Below are positions 1 to 22,570 of a DNA stretch of 32,000 nucleotides, in pieces; the stretch's first letter is position 1, and every line of letters starts with the position of its first letter. The notes below the pieces were generated by a model, which saw nothing but the letters and a program-made list of their open reading frames with translations, ran no database searches and was not told the DNA's origin. Source of the stretch: Nitrosarchaeum sp. GTDB taxonomy: Archaea; Thermoproteota; Nitrososphaeria; Nitrososphaerales; Nitrosopumilaceae. The stretch covers positions 122,192 through 154,191 of the forward strand of contig JAILWJ010000003.1 in NCBI GenBank assembly GCA_025699025.1, given 5' to 3'. Position numbers and translations under genes: made by a program.

Positions 1-357
1 AACGCCATGAATTTTTGATTCAGATGTTATTAAAGTGTCAATGCAGGATTCTGCAAATGTTTTTGCTTGTTCAGATAGATCCAATACAGATGTAGAATCA
101 ATGATTGCTTTTTTTATATCGCTGCCTTTTCTTTCATGTACATCTTCAGAAATATCAAGAACTAGTTCGGTAGATTCTATCCCATGTTTTTTGACTTTAT
201 TGAAATCAAGGTTCAGTATTTTTGAGTTTGGAAGAAATTTTTCAATAGATCGTATCCCCTCAATAATCTTGGCTTTGTTTGCACCTAAATCCACCAATGA
301 GCAGAGAAGCATATCACCAGAAATTCCGGCAATTTGAGGATCTATCACAACAACCAT
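1..357 (-). CDS. larC: LarC-family (DUF111) nickel-insertion protein, N-terminal 119 codons; the gene runs off the left edge
   Basis: Missing from the ORF track because the window edge truncates it. Hand translation of the minus strand from ATG at 357 gives [41 protein letters not shown]...[18 protein letters not shown], open to base 1. The D-x4-GISGDM...DLG N-terminus is the LarC/DUF111 hallmark. The + strand ORF 35..337 is its shadow. Confidence 0.75.
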
Positions 358-444
358 AGTTTGAAAATCATCAAAAATGCATATAAATTCTGTCTAAGAA
401 AGAACTGCATTAGATTTAATTATTCAGAATTCAGAGCGATTCAT

Positions 445-1359
445 ATGATTACAATAATAGGTTCAGGAAAGGTTGGCGGAGATGCAGCATTGTTTTCGGC
501 ATTAAAAAAATTAGATGATCAAATATTGTTATTAGATGTGGCTGAAGGACTTCCTCAGGGAGAAGCAATGGACATCAACCATATGCTTGCAGAACAGGGA
601 ATAGATGTCGAAGTAAAGGGTTCGAACAATTTTGCAGACATGAAAGGCTCAAACATTGTAGTAGTAGTAGCAGGTTCTGGCAGAAAACCAGGAATGACTA
701 GAATGGATCTTTTGAAAATTAACGCATCAATTGTAAAAAATGTAGTAGAAAACATCAAAAAATATGCAAATGACTCCATGATAATTCCAGTAACCAATCC
801 CCTTGATCCAATGGCATACATAACTTACAAAGTTTCAGGCTTTGACAGAAGCAGAGTTTTTGGAATGGGAGGTATGCTAGATTTGTCAAGATTCAGACAA
901 TTTATTCATGAGGCTACAGGTCATTCACGTGACTCTATACGGGCCCTAGTAATTGGCGAGCATGGAGAAAATATGCTGCCACTAACAAGGTTTTCCTCAG
1001 TATCTGGAATTCCGTTGTCATCATTTCTTCCAAAAGAAAAACTAGAGGAGTTGGTTCAAAACACCAAACAAGTTGCAGCCAAAGTTATTGAGCTAAAGGG
1101 TGCAACGGTTCACGCTCCAGGAAATGCGATTTCTGCAATGATCGAGTCAGTTGTAAGAGACAGAAAACAAGTAATCCCAGTTGCAACATATTTGGACGGA
1201 GAATACGGTTACTCGGATGTAACAATAGGTGTGCCAGCAGTAATTGGAAAGAAAGGCGTTGAAAAAATCATCGAGTTGGAGCTAAATGATGAGGAAAAGA
1301 AAGTCTTTGACGCAGCAATACAAAGTGTAAAGAGTGCAATATCAGGTATTGAGATCTAA
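445..1359 (+). CDS. mdh: NAD-dependent malate dehydrogenase (LDH/MDH superfamily)
   Basis: ORF 334..1359. The Rossmann motif [12 protein letters not shown] starts at ATG 445, which I take as the true start. Family motifs present: [14 protein letters not shown] (Arg at the position that is Gln in lactate dehydrogenases, indicating malate specificity), PVTNPLD and IGEHGE. Confidence 0.9.
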
Positions 1360-1362
1360 GCA

Positions 1363-1369
1363 TTTTTTT
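1363..1369 (+). terminator. Oligo-T tract (T7) 4 nt after the mdh stop, a candidate archaeal terminator
   Basis: TAAGCATTTTTTTA directly follows the stop codon. Archaeal termination typically occurs at oligo-T runs. Confidence 0.3.
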
Positions 1370-1392
1370 ATTCATTCATAGTTCATAATTTG

Positions 1393-2175
1393 ATGGACAT
1401 CAATGAGATTTTAGAATCATTAGAATCAAGAAAGATATCATCTAAAGACGCAAAAAAAATGCTTTCATTATACTCAATTGAAGAGATAGACAACATTGCA
1501 AAAATAGACATAAACAGACAAAAGAGGAGAGGGATTCCAGAAGTAATTTTTGCTCAAAATAAAGAATTAACAGAGATAAAAAAAATCATCAAAAACACAA
1601 TAAATAAAACAGATTCGCTTGTAGTATCAAGAATCAACAAAAAAGATTATCAAAAAATAATATCGTTTTCTAAGAAATTAAAAATTAAAATTAAAACTGG
1701 AAAAAAATCATCAACGATATTGCTGTTCAAAAAACCAATCAAGTTCAAAGGAGGTAATGTGGGAATTATAACTGCAGGTACGTCAGATATAGGAGTAGCT
1801 GAAGAATCACGATTGATGTGTGAGGCCATGAGCTGCAAATGTATCATAAGCTATGATGTAGGAGTTGCAGGAATACAGCGGATTTTTCCAATTTTGAAAA
1901 AAATGATTGAGAGTGACGTGGATTGCATAATTGTTGCTGCAGGAATGGAGGCAGCTTTGGCAACACTGGTATCATCCCTAGTTGACATTCCAGTCATAGG
2001 ACTTCCCACATCGGTAGGATATGGTTATGGTGAAAAAGGGATCGGGGCATTGGCATCAATGCTTCAAAGCTGCGCATTAGGATTGTCAGTGGTAAACATC
2101 GACAATGGAATTGGAGCAGGGGCAATGGCTGCAAATATTGCAAATAGGACCGTACAAAAAAAGAAGACAAAATAA
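1393..2175 (+). CDS. larB: LarB (PurE-like pyridinium-3,5-biscarboxylic acid mononucleotide synthase)
   Basis: ORF 1390..2175 (TTG 1390, ATG 1393). GIPEVIFAQ...GIITAGTSDIGVAEE...YDVGVAGIQR...AAGMEAALATLV...GLPTSVGYG...VNIDNGIGAG matches the LarB / NCAIR-mutase-related family along its length. Confidence 0.85.
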   Translation: MDINEILESLESRKISSKDAKKMLSLYSIEEIDNIAKIDINRQKRRGIPEVIFAQNKELTEIKKIIKNTINKTDSLVVSRINKKDYQKIISFSKKLKIKIKTGKKSSTILLFKKPIKFKGGNVGIITAGTSDIGVAEESRLMCEAMSCKCIISYDVGVAGIQRIFPILKKMIESDVDCIIVAAGMEAALATLVSSLVDIPVIGLPTSVGYGYGEKGIGALASMLQSCALGLSVVNIDNGIGAGAMAANIANRTVQKKKTK

Positions 2176-2230
2176 AACACATTGTAAATTTAAAAATGAA
2201 TCAGATAAATCCTAAAGCCCCATCTCGTAA

Positions 2231-2240
2231 ATCATATATA
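2231..2240 (+). promoter_or_regulatory. TATA-like box (ATCATATATA) about 30 nt upstream of the radical SAM start
   Basis: The spacing fits a leaderless or short-leader archaeal promoter. Supported by sequence pattern only. Confidence 0.3.
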
Positions 2241-2266
2241 CCATAGTGAAACGAAGCTAAGTAATA

Positions 2267-3844
2267 TTGTCTGGAAAGCGTATTGTTTTAACTGCGGATC
2301 GTAGTTTGATGACAAACTATCGAGGAAATTTTCTTTATGGGTTTATTGCATGCGGACCATACGAGGTTCTTCCAGAATGGGTTTTTGACAAAGTGTTCTG
2401 TCCTGCAGTGGAAACAGATCCAATAACAGGAGAAGTAAAGGTTGCTCAGGTAGGACTAAGAAGAGTAGAAAGTGCACTACTTCAAGGATACAAGAGAGAT
2501 GAGGTGTTTGTTGCAAACCCAGAGATGTTAGAAAAGTCAATTGGTCCTGATACCAAAGTGGTAGGAATCAACGTAATGGATCCTTTGGGAATGGCACCAG
2601 TCACTACAACAATGTCGCCTGAGAAATTATCATATGTTGCAATGAAATTCAAAAAAATGTGTGCAAGCATAATTCAGCTCAAAAAGAAATATGATTTCCA
2701 CGTAGTGGTGGGAGGCAATGGGGCATGGGAGCTTGCAAAATCAGACAGAATGAAGATTCACGGTATCGATACAGTTGTTGTAGGCGAAGCTGATGAATTA
2801 GCATTGGACTTATTTCACGATTTGGAAAAAGGTGATGCTCCAGAATTAATGCATTGTTTTGTAAAGAATATTCAGAACATACCAGTAATTGAGGGCCCTA
2901 CCATCAACTCGCTAATTGAAGCCATGAGAGGCTGTGGAAGAGGTTGCGATTTTTGTGATGTTAACAAGAGATCAAAAAAAGACTTGCCACTTGAAAGGCT
3001 GCAACATGAAGCCAAAATTAACTTGGATTACGGATTTGATTCGGTATGGCTGCATTCAGATGAGATGCTTCTTTATGGATGTGACAACAGGGATTTCATT
3101 CCAAATAGAGATGCGATTACAGATCTTTGGAAGGGTCTAAAAGGACTAGGAGCCAATTTTATTGGAACCACACACATGACATTCTCAGCGGTTGCTGCAG
3201 ATCCTGAATTAATGAAACAGATTTCACACATCAACAGACAGGATGAGACAGGAAGATGGCTTGCAACCAATTTAGGAATCGAAACGGTGGCACCAAAAAT
3301 GGTAAAGAAGCATCTAGGAGTCAAGACAAGACCGTTTGCACCTGAAGAATGGGGCAGTGTGGTAAGAGAAGGTGCAAAGATTCTAAATGAAAACCACTGG
3401 TTCCCAGCAGCAACAATCATCATCGGTTGGCCAGATGAAACACCGGATGATGTACAATATACAATCGACATGATGAGTGATTTTAGACAGATGGACTTTA
3501 GAGGACTAGTAGCACCATTACTTTATCAAGACTTTAGTGAAAAGAACTCAATGCATTTTGGAAATCTGAATGAAGCTCAATTTACATTATTTTGGAAGTG
3601 TTGGGAAAATAACCTCAGAGTGATCAATGACATCATTCCAATAATTCTAAGAAACAAAACATACGGTCCACCAATGAAAGTTTTCATGTATGGAATTTTA
3701 AAGGCAGGAACATGGGCAATCATGAGATACCTTCGTGGACTGTGCAAAGATCTTTTCAACGGCAGAACACCTGATGAGATTATAGACAAATATGCAAGAA
3801 GCAGATCAGTGTCTGCACCAAAAATTCAAACAAAGAAGCTATAA
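2267..3844 (+). CDS. Radical SAM enzyme with an N-terminal B12-binding-like (flavodoxin-fold) region; function unknown
   Basis: 525-aa ORF with a TTG start. CGRGCDFC (Cys223/227/230, nt 2933-2956) is the canonical CX3CX2C radical SAM motif. Upstream, VVGINVMDPLG...HVVVGGNGAWE resembles the Rossmann-like domain of class B radical SAM proteins. Confidence 0.8.
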   Translation: MSGKRIVLTADRSLMTNYRGNFLYGFIACGPYEVLPEWVFDKVFCPAVETDPITGEVKVAQVGLRRVESALLQGYKRDEVFVANPEMLEKSIGPDTKVVGINVMDPLGMAPVTTTMSPEKLSYVAMKFKKMCASIIQLKKKYDFHVVVGGNGAWELAKSDRMKIHGIDTVVVGEADELALDLFHDLEKGDAPELMHCFVKNIQNIPVIEGPTINSLIEAMRGCGRGCDFCDVNKRSKKDLPLERLQHEAKINLDYGFDSVWLHSDEMLLYGCDNRDFIPNRDAITDLWKGLKGLGANFIGTTHMTFSAVAADPELMKQISHINRQDETGRWLATNLGIETVAPKMVKKHLGVKTRPFAPEEWGSVVREGAKILNENHWFPAATIIIGWPDETPDDVQYTIDMMSDFRQMDFRGLVAPLLYQDFSEKNSMHFGNLNEAQFTLFWKCWENNLRVINDIIPIILRNKTYGPPMKVFMYGILKAGTWAIMRYLRGLCKDLFNGRTPDEIIDKYARSRSVSAPKIQTKKL

Positions 3845-3954
3845 GATTTCAATAAAAACATACACAAATAATTTCTAACAAATCATAATCTTCGTCATGT
3901 TCTAGTAATTACCAAAAACTGCAAGAATTACGCACGAATTGAGGCATTGTATTT

Positions 3955-4278
3955 TTATAAATTTTCAATAGCTTTGTCAGCTATAGTGTTTCGTTTTGGA
4001 GTAAGAGATATGAAATAATTCTTATCAGCTCTCTCAATTGATTCTACTTTTTTGAAGGATTTTGATGGTACATCAAATTCGTAGATTCCAGATTCAAGAG
4101 TACCTTTTGCATAAATCATCAGATATGTATCGCCAGTGGATGGACTCAGTGGAATAAATGCCATTATGTATCCTTTATAGGAATTGATTGGCATTGTATT
4201 TTTCATAGGTGGTGCCGCAGATGCCATATATAGAAAAATGTCCTCGATTGTATCAAATTCCTCATATTCAATATGCAT
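3955..4278 (-). CDS. Hypothetical protein (107 aa)
   Basis: Clean ORF. A TATAAT-like element centred about 27 nt upstream of the ATG (near 4305). I recognise no family. Confidence 0.5.
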   Translation of the reverse strand: MHIEYEEFDTIEDIFLYMASAAPPMKNTMPINSYKGYIMAFIPLSPSTGDTYLMIYAKGTLESGIYEFDVPSKSFKKVESIERADKNYFISLTPKRNTIADKAIENL

Positions 4279-4352
4279 TAGAAATAGTCATTTGTTTCAG
4301 TATAATAACTTAGAGTGAATTTATAATAATTTTAAGGGTCTAACGTACAGAA

Positions 4353-4541
4353 TCATGTCTTGGGTCTTTTCTTATTTTTTATAATTTTTATGACAACTGC
4401 AGACATAAGGATTACCAGAACTGCAAAAAATGCCAGTTCCCCTATTTCAAGAGTAACTAAGTATATTGAAGAGAGGATTCCAAAGAAAATATTTTCAATC
4501 ATCATGTAAACCACTTGTAAACTTTCTAGAGATATTATCAT
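4353..4541 (-). CDS. Small 2-TM membrane protein; the true start is probably the internal Met pair at about 4505/4502
   Basis: Two hydrophobic helices (IFFGILSSIYLVTL, LAFFAVLVILMSAVVIKII) and a basic C-terminus KNKKRPKT. The first 12 codons coincide with a perfect palindrome and are probably non-coding. Confidence 0.35.
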   Translation of the reverse strand: MIISLESLQVVYMMIENIFFGILSSIYLVTLEIGELAFFAVLVILMSAVVIKIIKNKKRPKT

Positions 4542-4557
4542 TAGATAATATCTCTAG
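4526..4557. repeat. Perfect 14-bp inverted repeat with a 4-nt spacer (CTAGAGATATTATC-ATTA-GATAATATCTCTAG)
   Basis: Read directly from the sequence. It lies between the 375-aa surface-protein gene and the small membrane ORF. Confidence 0.8.
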
Positions 4558-4648
4558 GTTGTTGGCGTGCAAACCAATTACATCGTGTAACGATTGTACA
4601 GCATTAAATGTTTGGGAAATGGGGGGAATTCAATCATCAAGTAGATGA

Positions 4649-5776
4649 CTAGTTTCTTGTCTTAAAGTGTCTATGGACTTTGAATCCAATCAAAGCAGGT
4701 GCTGCAATGTACATGCCCAAGTTCAATGCGATTACAGACAGTCCCAATCCAAGTACTTGAGCCTCAGAGCCGTCCTCTGCCAACGTCATGATGGATAATG
4801 AGGATATCATTGGCGTGATAAATGCTCTTACCGCCTGTTGGAACAATGGGTTTTCTCTTTCCATATCAGCAATTGTTGGTGAGAATGAATAGTACAATTG
4901 GTTAAAGCCAGTCATGAATGCACTTCCTGAGGATGTGCTCATGACTGTATTGTCCCTGATTTCTCGCAAGAATTGCACTTGAGGTGCCAATTCAGTGCCA
5001 TATGCAGCAGTTGCAATTAGACATCCGCCGCCTGGTTTTTCATCAGTCTTAACAATTTGGCACATTCCATTTACTAATTCAGTTCCAGGGCCACAAACTG
5101 GTTCTTCTGGTTCAGGAACTATACACATTCCATTAACTAATTCTTCACCAGGTGGACATGTCAATGGTTCTTTTGGTTCTGGAACTATGCATTTTCCATT
5201 AACTAATTCTTCACCAGGTGGACATGTCAATGGTTCTTTTGGTTCTGGAACTATGCATTTTCCATTAACCAAGGTTTGACCAGATGGACATGTCAATGGC
5301 TTGGAATCGCCACCGGAAATAATATCACCAGAGCCACCAGTAAATTCAAAAGTAATTTCAGATGTCAATCCAGGAAAACTTGCAAAAATAGTATAATCAC
5401 CAGGTGCCTTGAATTGAGGGCCATCAGCCTTGAAGCTTGTTTGGAAAGAACCATCAGCAGCAGGATGTACTTGAGCTACAGTAACAATATTGTTATCTGG
5501 CGCTCGAACAATAATCGTAACATCACTAGGACTAAGATTTGCAAAATTATGAATTAAACCACTAACAACAACTACACCACCCTGACCGTAAAGAACTTGG
5601 TTGGTTTTCACGTTTAGATCATTATCCGGAGCATCAACAGCATCAACACATGCATTGCCTTGCCACACTTGGTCAGATTCACAGTCTTCTGGACTCTGAG
5701 CATGTACAGGCATAACAAATCCATAAAACATTAAAGAAATAGCTAATATCAGGAAACCCCCGTGCTTCATTTTCAT
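4649..5776 (-). CDS. Secreted, membrane-anchored protein with a signal peptide, an Ig-like region, four Cys-loop repeats, and a C(F/L)IATAAYG-type C-terminal module plus TM helix
   Basis: The N-terminus MKMKHGGFLILAISLMFYGFVMPVHA is a signal peptide. There are 4 tandem 22-aa units, PLTCPPGEELVNGKCIVPEPKE. GGGCLIATAAYGTELAPQVQFLREIRD...YYSFSP matches the conserved archaeal CFIATAAYG...LRxxRD...YYxxSP module (the one I recall being annotated as CFI-box). A hydrophobic C-terminal helix precedes HRHFKTRN. Confidence 0.75.
   Translation of the reverse strand: MKMKHGGFLILAISLMFYGFVMPVHAQSPEDCESDQVWQGNACVDAVDAPDNDLNVKTNQVLYGQGGVVVVSGLIHNFANLSPSDVTIIVRAPDNNIVTVAQVHPAADGSFQTSFKADGPQFKAPGDYTIFASFPGLTSEITFEFTGGSGDIISGGDSKPLTCPSGQTLVNGKCIVPEPKEPLTCPPGEELVNGKCIVPEPKEPLTCPPGEELVNGMCIVPEPEEPVCGPGTELVNGMCQIVKTDEKPGGGCLIATAAYGTELAPQVQFLREIRDNTVMSTSSGSAFMTGFNQLYYSFSPTIADMERENPLFQQAVRAFITPMISSLSIMTLAEDGSEAQVLGLGLSVIALNLGMYIAAPALIGFKVHRHFKTRN
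5039..5299 (-). repeat. Four tandem 66-nt (22-codon) coding repeats inside the 375-aa gene
   Basis: Units lie at 5234-5299, 5168-5233, 5102-5167 and 5039-5101 (the last is diverged). By hand alignment, units 2 and 3 differ at about five positions. Units 1 and 2 are identical over their first ~35 nt on the + strand. Confidence 0.85.
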
Positions 5777-5830
5777 TTTGAATCGGATTTGAGAGTATTT
5801 ATGTATTCAATGAAAGAAAAATTGACCTGA

Positions 5831-8800
5831 TTATACTCGAATTATACCTTTTTTGACCAAGTATTGAATTGATTTTATAAAGTCATCATCAGAAATTTGA
5901 TCGTTAGACCACCATTTTGCATTATTTTTTACCCAATCAGGAATTATTCTATTTGAAACAAGGTTTTGCTCAGAAGGTAACACAATAATCCCTTGTTCAA
6001 TTAGATGATCAATACTGTCAATAAACTCTGAATTAGAAATTGTGGATGAGGACCACCATTTTGCATTATTTTTTACCCAATCAGGAATTTCAGGATTTAA
6101 AACAGAAAAAGATACGGTTCCCAAGAACACACCATCATGTGTGAGATTGATCTTGTAAAGTCCAGGCAAGGAATTTTCATTTATTGTAAAAACGGTTTTG
6201 TATGATCCACTATTAGACAAAGAAGCGCCAAAATTTTGAGTTTTACCATCTGGCCCAGTAAGAACAATGTTCAAAGGTATGCCTCTTTTATGATTAGTTA
6301 TGCTTCCAGACAAAATTATCTCCTCAGTATTTTGTGAGGAAGGTTTTGAAACATTGGTAGTGCTTAACGTTGGCTGGGTTGTAAATGACGATGTAGATTT
6401 ATTTCGTGACATTGTAAAGATATTTGGATTTCCAGATTCATCACGCGAATCATGATATTTTGCATCGATGCTGCCTCCGGCAGTTGAAATTAATTTTGTT
6501 CCAGATTTGTCACAAATTTGTGAAGGCATTTTGAAAACGCCTGTAAAAATACCTGTGCTGGGTCCAGTTTCAATCAGAGTGAAGCCAGTAGCACCCAGAC
6601 CCCCATGTTCAACTCCGTCAATTGTGCAACGTTTGTATCTAATATCTTTGATTAAAATTTCTAGTAAAATATTTCCATCCTTTCCTACAGTATCAACATT
6701 AGAAGAATTCGGATCAGTTATAACATAATAGATATCAACTACATCACTTTTCAAATTTAGATCAGGATCATTTAGTGTGAGTGTAACAGGTTGGCCAAAT
6801 CTATAGGATGAAGAACCAGTAGAAACAACACCAGAGTGTGTAAAAATATCAGATTTTGTCGAAGTGGTAATCACAACACCCACCGCATCCAAATCAGAGT
6901 AAGAAATGGAAATTCCCTTATCATCAATTAATCGATCAGTGACTATGAATTTAATTTCATTATCTATTGTCTTGATTGTTCTAATAAAATTAGGATCTAA
7001 AATATTCAGTTGATTAGTAACAGCATATTCTAATGTGCCAACAAACTTTGAAGAATTATCACTTGTTTCCTCAAGTTCAAATCGATATATAGCATTGTTT
7101 ACAGTATCATCACCTTCAATTCCAAATGAAAAGAAATCAAAAATTATAGGTTGCATGTTAGGTTCATTTGAGATGTTTCCAGTAGAATCAAAATCTATGG
7201 TTACAAATACAGTTCCACTCTTATCCCCAATCGCCTCAACATCAGAATCATCTAACTGAAAGAATCCCTGTAAAGATGACAAGTCTCCAGAATCAACAAT
7301 TTGGATAGGAGAATTACCTAACGAACCAAAGGAAAGATTGATTGATGTATTTGAGAGATCAGTCAAGCCAAAATCATTACCAAAGGATCTGAAATCATAG
7401 TTAATCCAATTTGTCCCATCAACTCCAGATATTGAGGAGTCTATTAATGACGAGTAAAGAGCGGATGCAGAAACTCCCAAATTAAAGGAGATTTTTTCAA
7501 ATGTATTTAGTCCTACGTTAGATGTATCAATTAACAATATGTCAGAATTGGTATCAGAAATAGAAGAATCTGCATCATCTCCAGTCGTGGTGGCAGATGT
7601 TAAGAAAAATTGAAAGTTGGAGGCTTTTTCAAGGGTTACAGGTGTGCCTATTTGCAGGCTCGGAACAGTAGAGGTATCACGAAATACATCAAGATGATCT
7701 CTAGAGCCAGAGTTAATGTTTTGATCAGGATCAAATAGGATTATTGGAAATTTAATTCCAGGAGTTAGCAATGTAGAGCCAGAACCAATGGTCAGTGTTG
7801 GTTCATTAACAGATACGGATGCAGAAGAAAATCCCGTTAAAACAGAGAGGGACTTTTGATTGTATTTTATTATTCCAGTTTGTCCCCTAGGTGCGTCACT
7901 TGAAATTTTTACAACAGAATCATCATTGTCGTCTGCGCTGTCAAACAGTCCGGAATTAGGACCCTCTTCAACCAGTGTTACGATTTGTGAAAATGTAGAT
8001 ACACCATTACTGACAGATGTATTTGGTTGTTCATCATTAACGGTTAACTCCATTACGCTTCCCAAACTTAGAAATAATTTTCCATTATCTTCAAATCCCA
8101 AGGTTGAAAGAGAAGGAACCAAATTGACCAGTCCTGCACCGCCGTTTGCAGAATTGGAACCAGTACTATCAAATGCTTGGTAAAATGTCGAAGCAGAATC
8201 AATACCAAATGTCCATGAATCTTCATCGGTAGGATCTTGGTTTAGTTGAAAATCATCAATAAATACAAAGACTTCAGCATTTTGTGGATACGCATCCCTA
8301 TCAATACTCAATGAAATATTGTTACTTTCAGTATATTCAAGATCAACTCGTTGCGGGTTTCCTCCGGCATTATACTGGATTATTACATCATCAAATGAAT
8401 ATAATTGGATCAGAGGCCAGGCATCTGGATCAAGACCTATCTGTCCGGATAAAATATTTGCATTTGTATTGATGGATTTTGCTTTTCTTACAACGTTATT
8501 CAAACTGGTAGAACTAGACGGGCTTCCATCACATTCTAAAAAAGATGAATTTCCGTTGGTAAAACTACCAGGTGTCAGTCCAGAAGAATGAGGAATGGAA
8601 AATCCATCGGTTTCAGAGAGAGAAATTCCGATTACAGAAGAGGGGGTGTTTCTACTACAAAAAACACCAAAGTCCAAACCCTTGCCTGCCAATCCAACCG
8701 TAGCATCTGCTGCCTTTGCTTTATTGACATTGGCAAAATATGCATACCAATTTCCATCAGTTGCCTGAACCATACGGAGTGTTTTTCCATTGATTGTGAC

Positions 8801-19260: not shown

Positions 19261-19333
19261 AAAGTACTAGAAGATCATTCCAAAATAAGAGCTTTGGCAA
19301 ACGGCTTTATCCTAGCTTTTGAACATTCTATGC

Positions 19334-19948
19334 ATGTCCCTCAAAAATATAAAATCATCGTTAAATAAAATTGCAAAATCATTATCAGACATTCAGGATG
19401 CCAGAGAATTTTTATTGAAAAACACAAGAGAGGTGATAATTCTTTGTAGCAGATCAATTATTTCAGTCCATAAAGGAGACATCAAATCTGCAAAAAATAA
19501 TCTAAGACAAGCAGAAGTACTTTTGAAGAAATATCAAAAAAAAGCAACTGATGATCTTAGAAAATACATTATTACACCAGAGCAAGAATTTGTAGAAGCA
19601 GCATGCCTTGTGGCAATTTTTGAAAAAAAAGAGATTCCAGATGATAAGAAATTGAATGTAATGCCAGAATCATATGTACTTGGATTACTGGATTGTGTAG
19701 GAGAATTGAAACGAATGGTTTTTGACAAAATTAGAATAGGAGACATAGATGAGGCAATTAGAATTTTTGACATAATGGAAACCCTCTATTTGGAATTATA
19801 TCCATTTTCAATGTATGATAAAGTAGTGAAGGAATCAAGAAGAAAAATCGATGTGAATAGAATTCTGGTTGAAGATGCTCGAGGTGCAATTACAGAAGAA
19901 AAAAGAAGATCAGAGTTAATCAAAGCACTAAGTAAATTTCAAAAATAA
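19334..19948 (+). CDS. Translin-family protein
   Basis: ORF 19319..19948 (TTG); I prefer ATG 19334. All-helical, with EQEFVEA and YVLGLLDCVGELKRM (the Y-x-L-G-x-x-D-x-x-GEL-x-R translin/TRAX signature). Confidence 0.7.
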   Translation: MSLKNIKSSLNKIAKSLSDIQDAREFLLKNTREVIILCSRSIISVHKGDIKSAKNNLRQAEVLLKKYQKKATDDLRKYIITPEQEFVEAACLVAIFEKKEIPDDKKLNVMPESYVLGLLDCVGELKRMVFDKIRIGDIDEAIRIFDIMETLYLELYPFSMYDKVVKESRRKIDVNRILVEDARGAITEEKRRSELIKALSKFQK

Positions 19949-19957
19949 GTCAATTTT

Positions 19958-19974
19958 CATATGGTTTATGCGGG
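19958..19974 (+). repeat. Direct repeat, left copy: CATATGGTTTATGCGGG
   Basis: Exact match to 22455-22471. The flanking bases differ on both sides. Confidence 0.9.
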
Positions 19975-20006
19975 GGATATAGTTAGAGCTGCACATTTTG
20001 CACTAA
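19973..20006 (+). repeat. Inverted repeat, left arm: GGGGATATAGTTAGAGCTGCACATTTTGCACTAA
   Basis: 31/34 identical to the reverse complement of 22422-22455 by hand alignment. Confidence 0.85.
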
Positions 20007-20028
20007 ATGGATAATCTTAAGTTCACAA

Positions 20029-20730
20029 ATGATTAGAAAAACCATGAATCAGAGACATGCAGCAATCCTGATTTTTCTTGTTTTATTGACTCCGATAATT
20101 TCATCAGCAGATGCTGCAAAACCAATGGACATCAAAGCGCAAAACCCACGAGTGACCGAACATGAATTTTACAACACGATTGCAGTTGACATTCATATCA
20201 GTATACCCGATATTGAGATAAACGATTGGATTACGATTCTGCCTCTGGATTTTACAATTGTAAATGAGGAAGGAAAAGCATACTATCATAGTAAGGATTG
20301 TGGCCCGCAGTTATATTACGAAATGAGGGGCAAGACTGGGCCCAATGGCTCTTTTACTGTTTGTTATGATGTAGAAAAAAAATACAATCAATTCAAAATG
20401 TATTATAAGAAAAATCTTCTTGGCAATATTGACTTGGCAGAAATAACTGCTGCATCTCCAGATACAATTAAACAAAATACAAACAGTGATGGACAATCAT
20501 GTATCAGAATGATGACTCAGGAAGAAAAAGATGCCAATCCAGATAGGATACAGGATGGAATTCAGGGAGTCATGATTGACGGCAAATGTGTTACAGAGGA
20601 TAAATCCACAAACTTGTCAATACAGAATAGTGCAGATGGAGTTAAATCAGAAAACAAAAGTCAGGATACTGGGATAGGTTTGTTTTTTTCCCAGTTGATG
20701 GACATGATTCGGTCATTATTTCGATTCTAG
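20029..20730 (+). CDS. Hypothetical secreted protein (233 aa)
   Basis: Signal peptide MNQRHAAILIFLVLLTPIISSADA and an amphipathic C-terminus GIGLFFSQLMDMIRSLFRF. I recognise no family. Confidence 0.6.
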   Translation: MIRKTMNQRHAAILIFLVLLTPIISSADAAKPMDIKAQNPRVTEHEFYNTIAVDIHISIPDIEINDWITILPLDFTIVNEEGKAYYHSKDCGPQLYYEMRGKTGPNGSFTVCYDVEKKYNQFKMYYKKNLLGNIDLAEITAASPDTIKQNTNSDGQSCIRMMTQEEKDANPDRIQDGIQGVMIDGKCVTEDKSTNLSIQNSADGVKSENKSQDTGIGLFFSQLMDMIRSLFRF

Positions 20731-20927
20731 TCGTTGAGCATTTTACTAAACAATCTTTTTGCGGCTGCGACAATTGATGCTATTATCAGAATTGCTCCAA
20801 AAAAGAACAAAACCCATCCTATGCCTCCATACTGGAATTGCTTTGTCATCATGACATTTCCAGCTAGAATCATTCCAATGAAAAGCAAGATAATTCCAAT
20901 GATGAGAACCTTGACCCATGTTTTCAA
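20727..20927 (-). CDS. Small 2-TM membrane protein (66 aa)
   Basis: Helices VKVLIIGIILLFIGMILAG and GWVLFFFGAILIIASIVAAA. Its stop overlaps the stop of the convergent upstream gene (CTAG). Confidence 0.45.
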   Translation of the reverse strand: MKTWVKVLIIGIILLFIGMILAGNVMMTKQFQYGGIGWVLFFFGAILIIASIVAAAKRLFSKMLND

Positions 20928-20955
20928 TAATATGTGAATAAATTGGTCATAGATA

Positions 20956-20980
20956 AGTTAGAGTGGAAGATTTTGCACTA
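20956..20980 (+). repeat. Internal third copy of the repeat core: AGTTAGAGTGGAAGATTTTGCACTA
   Basis: 24/25 identical to the reverse complement of 22423-22447 and 21/25 identical to 19981-20005. It ends exactly at ATG 20980. Confidence 0.85.
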
Positions 20981-21789
20981 TGCAATCCCGAGTAGCCAAG
21001 AACATGCCAAGCCCAGTACTCATTGATCATTTTATTACTTTCAATAATACAAAACATAATTACAAAATGGCTATCATTTATGGAATGGCTGATAGTGAGA
21101 AGGAACTTTTAGCAAAATTACCTAACGAAGTCAAAAGAGTAGCCGATATTGACAGAGTCAAAAAAGAATTCTACATGAAAATGAAAAAACAACGCTATGG
21201 TTATCATAAAAAATCAATATTTGGGATAGCTTTTTCAGAAATCAAAAGATTTCACTACAAAAGACAACTTGATAAATTTCAATATAGGAAAATAGGAAAA
21301 CTTAGAACAGGAACACATGGGGAAAAGAGTGTCATAAATGAATTATCAAAATTAGATGATAATTATCATGTGTTGTGTGGCGTTGAAATTGAATTGGATA
21401 ATTGGGTTACATATAACGGACAAAAAAACCTCAAATCAGCTCAAATGGATATTGTAGTTGTTTGTCCAAAAGGAGTTTTTATGATTGAGGTCAAAAACTG
21501 GACTGATGACTTTGTTAAAAATGGGAATTGGAGGTTCAATCCATACGAACAAACAGATCGTGCAGGACGAGTATTGTGGATTGCAATGCAGAACATACTA
21601 ACAGAATGTAACGTTACAAGTGTGCTGTTATCAATTAATGGAAATCTTCGATATAATGATGCATTTAGATTTGTAAATGTCTCAAGTTTAGGAACAATCA
21701 ACAATTTCATAACAAAAAGATCTGACCATCTAACAGATGATGAAGTAAATCACGTGGTTAAAAATTTGCTTTATTATATTACAGAGTAA
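20980..21789 (+). CDS. NERD-domain (PD-(D/E)xK nuclease-related) protein
   Basis: GTHGEKSVINELSKLDDNYHVLCGVEI...SAQMDIVVVCPKGVFMIEVKNW...NPYEQTDRAGRVL follows the NERD pattern (G-x-x-GE, then D...E-x-K). The start is either ATG 20980 (abutting the repeat core, possibly leaderless) or ATG 21067 (MAIIYGM). Confidence 0.75.
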   Translation: MQSRVAKNMPSPVLIDHFITFNNTKHNYKMAIIYGMADSEKELLAKLPNEVKRVADIDRVKKEFYMKMKKQRYGYHKKSIFGIAFSEIKRFHYKRQLDKFQYRKIGKLRTGTHGEKSVINELSKLDDNYHVLCGVEIELDNWVTYNGQKNLKSAQMDIVVVCPKGVFMIEVKNWTDDFVKNGNWRFNPYEQTDRAGRVLWIAMQNILTECNVTSVLLSINGNLRYNDAFRFVNVSSLGTINNFITKRSDHLTDDEVNHVVKNLLYYITE

Positions 21790-21847
21790 ACATGAGTTAC
21801 AAAATAATTAGTCTGTTCATATGCAAATAAATTAAAATTAGAAAAAA

Positions 21848-22144
21848 TCATCTCTCAGATGAATTATTTTGAAGATAATCTCTTTCATCAAAATTTCTAT
21901 CTGTATATATTCTCCGAATAAGTACAAACATCATTAAATTTAGTAAATATGGGAGTATCATATAGATGAATTTTGTTTCAGAAGGAATATTTTGAGATGG
22001 TAAAATGAAATCATTTAGTAGAAAGTTAATCACAACACTTCCTATTAGACCAATGAATTGATAGATAAATGCCACTTTTAATCTGCTCAATGGATTATTC
22101 AATTTAGTAAATAGGGATAGAAAAAATATTCTAACTGAAATCAT
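21848..22144 (-). CDS. Hypothetical small membrane protein (98 aa, 2-3 TM)
   Basis: Hydrophobic helices VAFIYQFIGLIGSVVINFLL and FIYMILPYLLNLMMFVLI. I recognise no family. Confidence 0.45.
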   Translation of the reverse strand: MISVRIFFLSLFTKLNNPLSRLKVAFIYQFIGLIGSVVINFLLNDFILPSQNIPSETKFIYMILPYLLNLMMFVLIRRIYTDRNFDERDYLQNNSSER

Positions 22145-22186
22145 AAAAAAAGAAAATTTTTAGAAGGATAGAAGTGATTTTTGATA

Positions 22187-22327
22187 TTATTCTACTTTAA
22201 GACCATCATTTTCAATCATTCTATCTAAATATGCATCTTGAATTTTTATGATTTTATGTTTTAATGGTTCACTATTCGAAGATTTTCGCAACTCTTCTAA
22301 TTTTACTAATGTTTCTTCAATTGTCAA
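22187..22327 (-). CDS. Candidate 46-aa helical ORF (TTG start), below the track cutoff
   Basis: Hand translation: LTIEETLVKLEELRKSSNSEPLKHKIIKIQDAYLDRMIENDGLKVE. The only in-frame start is TTG, so support is weak. Confidence 0.15.
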   Translation of the reverse strand: MTIEETLVKLEELRKSSNSEPLKHKIIKIQDAYLDRMIENDGLKVE

Positions 22328-22421
22328 ATTTTCATGTTCACCTCCGATCTAACTTCTATTGATATGAATTTCTAAAAGTGTTATGATGATAATCTGATAA
22401 TATCTTCATTTTGATCATGAA

Positions 22422-22455
22422 TTAGTGCAAAATCTTCCGCTCTAACTATATCCCC
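22422..22455 (-). repeat. Inverted repeat, right arm (reverse complement GGGGATATAGTTAGAGCGGAAGATTTTGCACTAA)
   Basis: See the left arm. It abuts the right direct repeat. Confidence 0.85.
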
Positions 22456-22471
22456 ATATGGTTTATGCGGG
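22455..22471 (+). repeat. Direct repeat, right copy: CATATGGTTTATGCGGG. Its last 6 nt are the tRNA-Leu 3' end.
   Basis: Exact match to 19958-19974. Confidence 0.9.
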
Positions 22472-22550
22472 CGATGGGATTTGAACCCACGAACTCCTAA
22501 GAGACTAGCCCCTCAAGCTAGCGCCTTTGGCCAGGCTGGGCGACGCCCGC
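22466..22550 (-). tRNA. tRNA-Leu (anticodon GAG), type II with a long variable arm; no encoded CCA, no intron
   Basis: The reverse complement folds by hand. The sequence is GCGGGCG-TC-GCCCAGCCTGGCCAAAGGC-G-CTAGC-TTGAGGG-GCTAG-TCTCTTAGGAGTTC-GTGGG-TTCAAAT-CCCAT-CGCCCGC-A. It has a 7-bp acceptor stem, a 5-bp anticodon stem and a TTCAAAT T-loop. The anticodon loop is TT-GAG-GG. Confidence 0.9.
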
Positions 22551-22570
22551 AAGAAAAATTTCTTGCATGG

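Follow-up and report, generated by a model that had tools for sequence, protein, structure and literature searches.

A 2,483-bp segment in the genome of Nitrosarchaeum sp., lying between a translin gene and a gene for tRNA-Leu(GAG), is an insertion with a precise empty site in the nearest relative. We consider it very probable, as regards both the class of the element and the chemistry of its insertion, that this segment derives, as a non-autonomous element, from a family-2-type casposon, and that a casposase placed it at the tRNA gene's 3' end. Casposons are a type of transposon whose Cas1 is related to CRISPR spacer integration, and they are the presumed ancestors of the CRISPR adaptation module. 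The segment occupies positions 19973-22455 of an analysed stretch of 32,000 nucleotides (the window; assembly GCA_025699025.1, contig JAILWJ010000003.1, positions 122,192 to 154,191), to which all coordinates refer unless a locus is named. It had been singled out in an earlier reading of the letters alone (the original prediction) as a non-autonomous or decayed mobile cassette bounded by direct and inverted repeats.

Insertion at the tRNA-Leu gene

A search for translin with one genome per species gave 47 loci from Nitrosarchaeum and Nitrosopumilaceae; about 42 have, within 13-60 nt after the translin stop (in one case 121 nt), a tRNA-Leu(GAG) gene on the opposite strand. In the closest relative, L001, whose translin is 96% identical at the protein level, the site reads …TGA GTCAATTTT CATATGTTTTATGCGGG CGATGGG…, i.e. 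the translin stop, a single copy of the repeat and then tRNA-Leu. This is the empty site that the original prediction had proposed to look for, and it supports the claim of a cassette inserted between the two genes. By blastn, L001 aligns to the window at 93.4% up to position 19978 and at 94.8% from position 22455, the two alignments overlapping solely on one 21-nt copy of the target. Both copies of the 14-mer that flanks the element have a G where L001 has a T, which is what a duplication of host DNA would produce. A lineage whose flanks differ by about 6% had already split off when the insertion took place.

The 17-mer CATATGGTTTATGCGGG, described from the start as an exact direct repeat, is indeed found at two places in the window and no more (19958-19974 and 22455-22471), even when 3 mismatches are allowed; two matches were obtained in 0 of 100 shuffles. 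As a boundary it is real, but the meaningful unit is a perfect 14-bp target-site duplication, ATATGGTTTATGCG, which abuts both termini; the remaining C and GG come from chance overlap with the CCCC/GGGG termini. Once the terminus was defined as GGGGATATAGTTAG and a 14-nt repeat was required directly outside both ends, the span of the element could be re-defined as given above, beginning at its 5' side with GGGGATATAGTTAG and finishing with the reverse complement. Read in the orientation of the tRNA, the duplication is CGCATAAACCATAT, that is, CGCA followed by 10 AT-rich bp, and this CGCA forms the final 4 bp of tRNA-Leu. The tRNA itself, on the minus strand as predicted, was recovered both by ARAGORN (tRNA-Leu(GAG), 22465-22551) and by Rfam.

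Immediately inside the duplication lie two inverted arms of 34 nt, complementary at 31 of 34 positions (91%), in agreement with the hand alignment of the original prediction. The first 16 nt of both arms are identical, and all three mismatches fall inside an N6 block that is variable across the family of ends described below. A third copy of the 25-nt core, AGTTAGAG-N6-ATTTTGCACTA, is present inside the element and had been overlooked; the window holds no copies beyond these three. In a blinder scan, which covered all DNA assembled for the analysis and asked for any GGG…/…CCC inverted 12-mers with a flanking 14-mer repeat, only three structures were returned: the window element, whose termini flanked by the duplication are identical across the first 12 nt, and one element (E1) in each of the loci L087 and L111. 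There were none in the 47 control translin loci.

The insert has a GC content of 31.9%, as compared to 36.9% for the rest of the window, and lies below all 246 equal-sized windows elsewhere in the 32 kb, which bears out the impression that it is richer in AT than its flanks. Its right third has only 25.5% GC. Another low-GC stretch, at 1251-1750 (27.8% over 500 nt), is unrelated to the element.

Two translin loci have an unusual tRNA region. In L024 (~2650-2819), the tRNA-Leu downstream of translin diverges past the anticodon-arm region (…CTGAGAGACT|CTACTGAGCGAGATTTGC…), and the locus has no tRNA by ARAGORN; an intron, an insertion into the tRNA or a contig end are all possible. In L036 (~650-760), the 3' end of translin joins the upstream sequence of rpoN directly, without tRNA-Leu; either the tRNA region has been deleted there or the assembly is chimeric.

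The family of ends and its link to Cas1 and PolB

In Methanosarcina mazei, family-2 casposons are flanked by a 14-bp duplication in which the final 4 bp of tRNA-Leu are joined by 10 further bp; it starts with a conserved 5'-CGCA and continues AT-rich, and the target further requires about 30 bp of upstream tRNA sequence (PMC4779613; PMC6977970). The window element resembles these casposons in its target at the 3' end of tRNA-Leu, in its 14-bp duplication and in the 5'-CGCA followed by AT-rich sequence. The ends are likewise nearly matching, …CCTATATCCC-3' in M. mazei against …AACTATATCCCC-3' in the window. Over a longer comparison, the M. mazei end 5'-GAGTTACCTATATCCC-3' (PMC6977970) is set against …CTCTAACTATATCCCC-3', and the repeats begin GGG(G)ATATAG in both. 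When GGGGATATAGTTAGAG of the window is compared by eye with GGGATATAGGTAACTC, the reverse complement of the M. mazei end as printed in the papers, 12 of 15 overlapping positions agree and the first G of the window is unmatched. Judged from these sequences, the agreement in target gene, geometry, motif and terminus is essentially complete. The differences lie elsewhere: the window element is without cas1, polB, HNH and helix-turn-helix (HTH) genes, it measures 2.5 kb against more than 10 kb, its host is Nitrosarchaeum (Nitrososphaeria) and not a methanogen, and it has a 34-nt repeat of one type (the A-type, see below) at both ends, with a conserved subterminal block that is also repeated internally.

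The search for other copies of the terminus, which the original prediction had suggested, was productive. The core pattern matches at least 120 metagenomic contigs and has no copy in 51 control loci (the 47 related translin loci and 4 loci carrying a NERD-domain gene like that of the window), so that the motif does not behave as a common chromosomal promoter, one of the outcomes that had been named as jointly refuting the original prediction. About 85 of the matches listed share the extended context GGGGATAT AGTTAGAG N6 ATTTTGCAC TAA, and a profile built from these copies matches the right end of the window element in register, from 22492 to 22412, with 59.8 bits; CGGAAG, the N6 of the right arm, is a frequent variant in the family. 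The motif is met in three settings: (i) starting exactly 10 nt past the discriminator base of genuine tRNA-Glu(CTC) genes (L082, L102, L087), (ii) in head-to-head junctions of the form CTATATCCCC-N14-GGGGATATAG, and (iii) after a fragment that resembles a tRNA 3' end. Among the matches listed, the adjoining 14-mer begins with AGCA in 39 of 79 unique copies. It varies with the host target (CGCATAAACCATAT in the window; AGCACTATCCATTC, AGCACTTTATTGAT, AGCACAACGTGCAT and others elsewhere), whereas the termini, the length of 14 nt and the start 4 bp before the tRNA end are constant across the family. This is the behaviour of a target-site duplication and not of an attachment (att) core duplicated by an integrase, a kind of repeat that the original prediction had brought up alongside target-site duplications.

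In longer relatives the ends are of two subterminal types, A (as in the window, and on the PolB side in L170) and B (on the Cas1 side), the B-type end reading …N18…GACCCACGTGG. The end pairs are A/B in L111 E1, B/A in L156 and A/A in the window element. L087 E1 (120-4690) is a complete Cas1-less element of 4,571 bp at tRNA-Glu(CTC), with a perfect 14/14 duplication AGCACTATCCATTC. Its inverted repeats, 40 nt long, start GGGGTATAG / GGGGTATAGACAAGG, and an HxlR-type HTH protein and a PNPOx-like protein are among its cargo. It is the first member of a tandem array, ordered as tRNA-Glu, AGCACTATCCATTC, E1, AGCACTATCCATTC and a next element starting GGGGATATAGTTAGAG. Tandem accumulation of elements separated by a shared duplication, as in M. 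mazei, is thus seen in L087 and also in the head-to-head junctions. The L156 element (~340-7560, 7.2 kb) has a B-type left and an A-type right end, carries multicopper-oxidase-like genes (348 and 943 aa) and gives no Cas1 match. Both of its ends were identified and no matching duplication was found; its outer flanks are inverted copies of a tRNA-like fragment and 14-mer, hence no simple direct duplication.

The association of these ends with casposase genes was seen from both directions. Open reading frames (ORFs) of at least 120 aa from the motif-bearing loci, with overlaps removed, gave 326 proteins in 256 clusters, a sign of very diverse cargo; Cas1 (Pfam, E=8.9e-59) makes up one of the two largest. 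By tblastn, Cas1 genes or fragments are found in 17 of about 92 motif-bearing loci, as compared to 0 of 51 control loci. A 410-aa Cas1 has as its best solved-structure match the M. mazei casposase 6OPM (E=1.1e-67), against 7.5e-28 for the best CRISPR Cas1 structure, and since the 6OPM match covers residues 2-400, this Cas1 is family-2-like, C-terminal extension included. It has 935 homologues, more than 120 of them at 84% identity or above, and the source names of the latter, where given, are metagenome-assembled genomes of Nitrosopumilus sp. or 'archaeon'. Reciprocally, L176 and L177, which were selected through Cas1 homologues alone, both contain, 2-2.8 kb past cas1, head-to-head junctions GGGGATATAGTTA[T/A] whose 14-nt spacers are of the AGCA type. 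A PolB homologue is encoded in L177, and the PolB gene of L170 adjoins an A-type end. The family of ends is linked to elements that encode Cas1 and PolB.

Two statements of the original prediction have to be revised in this light. A direct repeat with terminal inverted repeats and no recombinase was said to fit no standard element class; the element fits the casposon class by its inverted repeats and tRNA-anchored 14-bp duplication, by its M. mazei-like terminus and by its Cas1- and PolB-bearing relatives. Mobile DNA was also said to be scarce in such archaea, which does not hold for this lineage, with the motif in at least 120 contigs and the hundreds of homologues of the matching Cas1.

Some neighbouring observations concern the same islands. 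By precomputed Pfam labels only, the cargo between cas1 and the B-type end is of a defence type, with KwaA/KwaB (Kiwa) in L177 (5162-14053) and an OLD-family nuclease in L176 (10001-13278). L075 encodes, at 132-1217 on the minus strand, a second Cas1, of 361 aa (Pfam Cas1, E=5e-46). It is divergent, with only 31% identity to the L072 type, is without the C-terminal extension and lies 200 nt from an A-type end module. It may be family-1-like, and two casposase types may be common to the same islands.

Solo A-type ends of about 42 nt also occur between two 32-nt units (L096, 282-406; L150, 3308-3431; L173, 7517-7645), with further such arrangements in L154 (1473-1602), L075 (1418-1560), L139, L063 and L167. 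The 32-nt unit consists of an 18-mer similar to a tRNA T-loop and acceptor, GGTTCAAATTTGAnTGGG, plus AGCA-N10. After the second unit comes the B-type end of a longer element, and in L150 and L173 the B-type end of a neighbouring element stands in place of the first 18-mer. This layout of repeat, end-derived 'spacer' and repeat recurs in diverged contigs, and might be a landing pad that forms part of the element or a proto-array-like structure. Solo terminal repeats of fixed length beside CGCA motifs have been described in M. mazei (Krupovic et al. 2016; PMC4779613; PMC6977970).

Cargo of the element

The features of the element and of its flanks are collected in Table 1. The ORFs of the cassette contain no domain of an integrase, a transposase or any other recombinase and none of Cas1, as the original prediction had it for integrase and transposase. 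PolB is absent as well, both as a domain in these ORFs and as a tblastn match in the 32-kb window. With neither Cas1 nor PolB, the element is not an autonomous casposon.

Table 1. Coordinates of the element, its flanking genes and its cargo in the window
Feature	Position	Strand	Evidence and remarks
Translin gene, left chromosomal flank, outside the element	19319-19948	+	Pfam Translin, E=1.4e-09; adjoins tRNA-Leu in the set of 47 related loci
Left copy of the duplication	19959-19972		14/14 against 22456-22469; abuts the terminus; present once in the empty L001 site
Left terminal inverted repeat, A-type, GGGGATATAGTTAGAG-CTGCAC-ATTTTGCACTAA	19973-20006	+	Inverted repeat, 31/34; fits the family profile; terminus like M. 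mazei GGGATATAGGTAACTC
233-aa ORF, signal-peptide-like N-terminus	20029-20730	+	ORF list; GenBank start 20044, 228 aa
66-aa hydrophobic ORF, putative small membrane protein	20727-20927	-	ORF list; no significant family in Pfam or PHROG
Internal partial A-type copy, AGTTAGAG-TGGAAG-ATTTTGCACTA	20956-20980	+	Without the GGGG terminus; 24/25 against the right arm
NERD-domain nuclease gene	21085-21789	+	Pfam NERD, E=1.4e-14; mechanical ORF starts at 20980
98-aa ORF, gene remnant	21848-22144	-	5'-truncated copy of a ~165-aa membrane-protein family
46-aa helical ORF, TTG start, doubtful gene	22187-22327	-	ORF list; no family; inside the 25.5% GC third
Right terminal inverted repeat, A-type, GGGGATATAGTTAGAG-CGGAAG-ATTTTGCACTAA	22422-22455	-	Profile match (score 59.8) in register across the tRNA 3' end
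Right copy of the duplication	22456-22469		Its end, 22466-22469, doubles as the final 4 bp of tRNA-Leu
tRNA-Leu(GAG), insertion target, intact	22466-22550	-	Rfam tRNA, 45.1 bits, E=1.2e-07

The cassette had been thought to encode only orphan genes. This stands, nearly, for the 233-aa protein, which belongs to no Pfam or PHROG family and for which a search of 5.8 billion proteins returned itself and one homologue, 39% identical, on a contig without casposon ends. Exact-sequence look-ups of its 228-aa form (P0241) and of the NERD protein of the window gave no match. It does not stand for the NERD gene, which has 542 homologues of 230-240 aa; these place its start near 21067-21085 and its true length at about 234-240 aa. 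Nor does it stand for the 98-aa ORF, which had 9 matches in a representative search (the best 71% identical), all aligning only to residues ~65-165 of longer proteins, so that the ORF corresponds to the C-terminal two-thirds of a family protein. A stop codon lies just upstream of the homologous region (tblastn and frame view).

Homologues of the NERD protein at 66-85% identity are found in varied and unrelated contexts without the end motif. The gene was for this reason rejected as a marker of the element, and is itself patchily distributed cargo. In L051 (6001-11606), a NERD homologue 66% identical to that of the window lies directly upstream of type I cas genes (Cas7, Cas5), and in L048 and L049 a NERD gene 85% identical at the nucleotide level is found amid hypothetical genes. 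Besides the ends, the window element has nothing in common with the other loci of the family.

The subterminal block AGTTAGAG-N6-ATTTTGCACTAA is present in three copies in the element, each pointing at downstream ORFs, and its typical place in the family is 30-180 nt upstream of an ORF on the same strand. Internal A-type copies without a terminus are also seen upstream of genes in L079, L162, L158 and L100. From its placement, the block would be a putative inward-facing promoter or regulatory site fused to a casposase recognition terminus of about 14 nt. Such a promoter would be predicted to start transcription about 25 nt downstream of ATATAGTT, near …GCACTAA.

Origin of the element and its relation to known casposons

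If the integration chemistry and the target rules reported in the literature apply here, the casposase would recognise the T-arm and acceptor region of the tRNA as a 'leader', together with the 14-bp segment starting with 5'-CGCA. The two 3'-OH ends of the element (…CTATATCCCC-3') would then attack opposite strands 14 bp apart, and gap repair would duplicate the 14 bp. The tRNA gene stays intact, since its last 4 bp are part of what is duplicated. An element without Cas1 and PolB must either have received the enzyme in trans, supplied by an autonomous casposon of that cell or lineage, or have lost the genes afterwards. We infer supply in trans and, because the two ends form an A/A pair, lean towards movement as a mini-element over decay in place.

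Decay in place is the alternative that survives best. A full-length autonomous casposon at tRNA-Leu would have been inserted by the same chemistry, would have lost cas1, polB and most of its genes by internal deletions, and would never have been mobile as a mini-element. We regard this as rather unlikely. It would account for the degenerate right third, with its 5'-truncated membrane-protein gene and low GC content, and for the internal A-type copy without GGGG, which could mark a collapsed tandem junction, so that a fusion of two tandem elements would be served by the same evidence. Many metagenomic relatives, moreover, retain Cas1 fragments only, and no second copy of the element is known. 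However, a simple internal deletion would have kept an A/B pair, whereas the ends of the window element are A/A and differ only in N6. No scrap of Cas1 or PolB is left despite the perfect 14/14 duplication and an insertion younger than the ~6% divergence of the flanks, and there is at least one other compact Cas1-less element with a perfect duplication, L087 E1.

Several points weigh against a casposon derivative that moved as a mini-element. The casposase is absent from the window, where tblastn with the L072 Cas1 gave no match. No second copy of the exact element was found and its 233-aa cargo is essentially unique; the internal decay just described fits a remnant equally well, and the longer relatives have A/B, not A/A, ends. 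The far end of an autonomous casposon is absent within 10 kb of cas1 in L176 and L177, and among the DNA retrieved there was no autonomous casposon complete with its two ends. The likeness to the M. mazei terminus is drawn from printed sequences and not from an alignment to the M. mazei genome, and the putative promoter role of the subterminal block has to be counted on the same side.

A tyrosine integrase could also have produced the arrangement, the repeat being an att core and the arms integrase binding sites, with later loss of the integrase gene. The element does resemble the thaumarchaeal cryptic integrated elements (Krupovic et al. 2019) in its small size, its place at a tRNA 3' end, its short flanking repeat and its cargo of unknown function; the smallest of these described measures 2.6 kb, thaumarchaeal att sites are short, with a median of 17 bp, and tRNA genes receive 57% of integrations, almost all of these at the 3' end (PMC6563490). 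The head-to-head junctions with their central spacer are reminiscent of attP, and in L079 and its equivalent L160 an integrase gene lies 25 nt upstream of a tRNA-like fragment that precedes an A-type end. Cryptic integrated elements are defined by an integrase and att cores, however, whereas here there is no integrase, the 14-bp repeat is derived from the target and the inverted repeats are of casposon type. The repeat follows the host target while the arms remain constant, always over 14 nt from 4 bp before the tRNA end, and both copies in the window share a host-lineage single-nucleotide difference from L001. This integrase is found in 1 distinct contig of about 92, as compared to Cas1 in 17 loci, and the terminus fits a biochemically characterised casposon end. 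Taken with this evidence, an origin by integrase appears very unlikely.

The one integrase locus, L079 (1-2230, equal to L160), has an intron-bearing tRNA-Ser(GGA) followed by a 439-aa tyrosine integrase (Pfam Phage_integrase, E=4.5e-16), then the tRNA-like fragment with its A-type end, a dioxygenase-like gene and a terminus-less A-type copy. It is an integrase element and casposon ends stacked at one site. The idea of an integrase-linked module was dropped, the L079 integrase being confined to that one distinct contig.

A derivative of an insertion sequence, either composite or similar to a miniature inverted-repeat transposable element (MITE), for which a DDE-type transposase would have made a long duplication beside tRNA genes, seems scarcely credible. 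Terminal inverted repeats with a duplication are the generic signature of DDE transposons and the element is non-autonomous; but the 14-bp duplication, the strict placement at tRNA 3' ends and the CGCA/AGCA start are the signature of a casposase, and an element that is 2.5 kb long and coding is not MITE-like. No transposase was found in the cassette or among the Pfam-annotated proteins of the motif loci, most of the 256 ORF clusters being unannotated. Practically no chance is left to an ordinary variable stretch of chromosome, with copies of a local promoter motif and a chance 17-mer: the subterminal block precedes ORFs in all three copies and part of it may be a promoter, but the precise empty site in the nearest relative refutes this reading, no shuffle reproduced the direct repeat, and the motif, found in 0 of 51 related chromosomal loci, is present in a Cas1-linked family.

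A few other readings were tried and rejected. An integron attC was considered, the head-to-head junction looking like CTCTAAC…GTTAGAG; in the window, however, one half stands at each end of the insert and the duplicated 14-mer comes between them, which makes the joining central and not at the G/TT of an R' box, and no IntI was seen. A small RNA or riboswitch was discarded after Rfam gave no match to the motif in the window region or in five loci of the family. A phage origin was set aside, the sole match in a phage collection being the tRNA itself, and four viral contigs that match the core pattern are without the GGGGATAT extension and look like chance. For a split or permuted tRNA, with GGTTCAAAT… and GGGGATATAG… as its pieces, the acceptor strands are not complementary, and full tRNAs were called by ARAGORN in 6 of 91 family loci. 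A decayed tandem junction to the left of the internal copy is unconvincing, as only ATATG fits the expected 14-mer.

Published thaumarchaeal casposons mostly belong to family 1, with ef-2 as target, a 13-bp duplication and ends finishing TTCTA (PMC8464041; PMC6563490). The exception is the family-2 casposon NitNCS1-C1 of Ca. Nitrosotalea okcheonensis, at the 3' end of tRNA-Pro, and a NERD nuclease is among the cargo of NitNF5-C1, of family 1 (PMC6563490). The window element thus shares a tRNA 3'-end target with NitNCS1-C1 and a NERD cargo with NitNF5-C1, and with these two and NitAR1-C1 it shares the thaumarchaeal setting, in which tandem insertions are known (PMC6563490; PMC8464041). Unlike it, all published thaumarchaeal casposons encode Cas1 and PolB, and we found none in the literature at tRNA-Leu or tRNA-Glu with these repeats.

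The closest functional parallel is artificial. In vitro, casposases integrate mini-casposons that have terminal repeats alone, for which about 5 terminal nucleotides are critical (PMC8464041; PMC6614799), and such end-only DNA is integrated site-specifically and with the correct duplication (Beguin et al. 2016/2019, PMC6614799; Wang et al. 2021). These mini-casposons are laboratory constructs, and the solo repeats of M. mazei are free of cargo, whereas the window element is natural, carries genes, and has two ends and a duplication. A search of the literature found no description of natural, non-autonomous, cargo-carrying casposons.

One might speculate further that the family-2-type casposases of ammonia-oxidising archaea routinely move Cas1-less mini-casposons in trans, as cassette shuttles that build tRNA-linked arrays, each with an inward promoter in its A-type end. 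A tRNA-like landing pad would be brought along or made by some of these ends, giving minimal proto-CRISPR-like units of repeat, solo end and repeat, and the window element would be a clean recent example. This broader picture, as a whole, is distinctly doubtful.

To our knowledge, every natural casposon described so far is large and self-synthesising, with Cas1 and PolB, and mini-casposons exist only as test-tube constructs. What is new here is either a natural, Cas1-less, cargo-carrying mini-casposon or a stripped remnant, and, beyond this element, a family-2-like casposon lineage that is abundant in Nitrosopumilaceae and has tRNA-Leu and tRNA-Glu as its targets. If the element is a true mini-element, a natural copy with intact ends, a perfect 14-bp duplication and neither cas1 nor polB would indicate that casposases act in trans in nature. 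It would also suggest that casposon ends can be all-purpose carriers of small gene cassettes, in this case a NERD nuclease, and would point to the 3' ends of tRNA-Leu and tRNA-Glu in Nitrosopumilaceae as hot spots where cassettes accumulate. Both the end sequence and the target rule of M. mazei (CGCA, 14 bp, tRNA-Leu) are extended across phyla, and a very abundant family-2-like casposase lineage is exposed in ammonia-oxidising archaea; together, these make the target logic of casposases testable in a new group of hosts.

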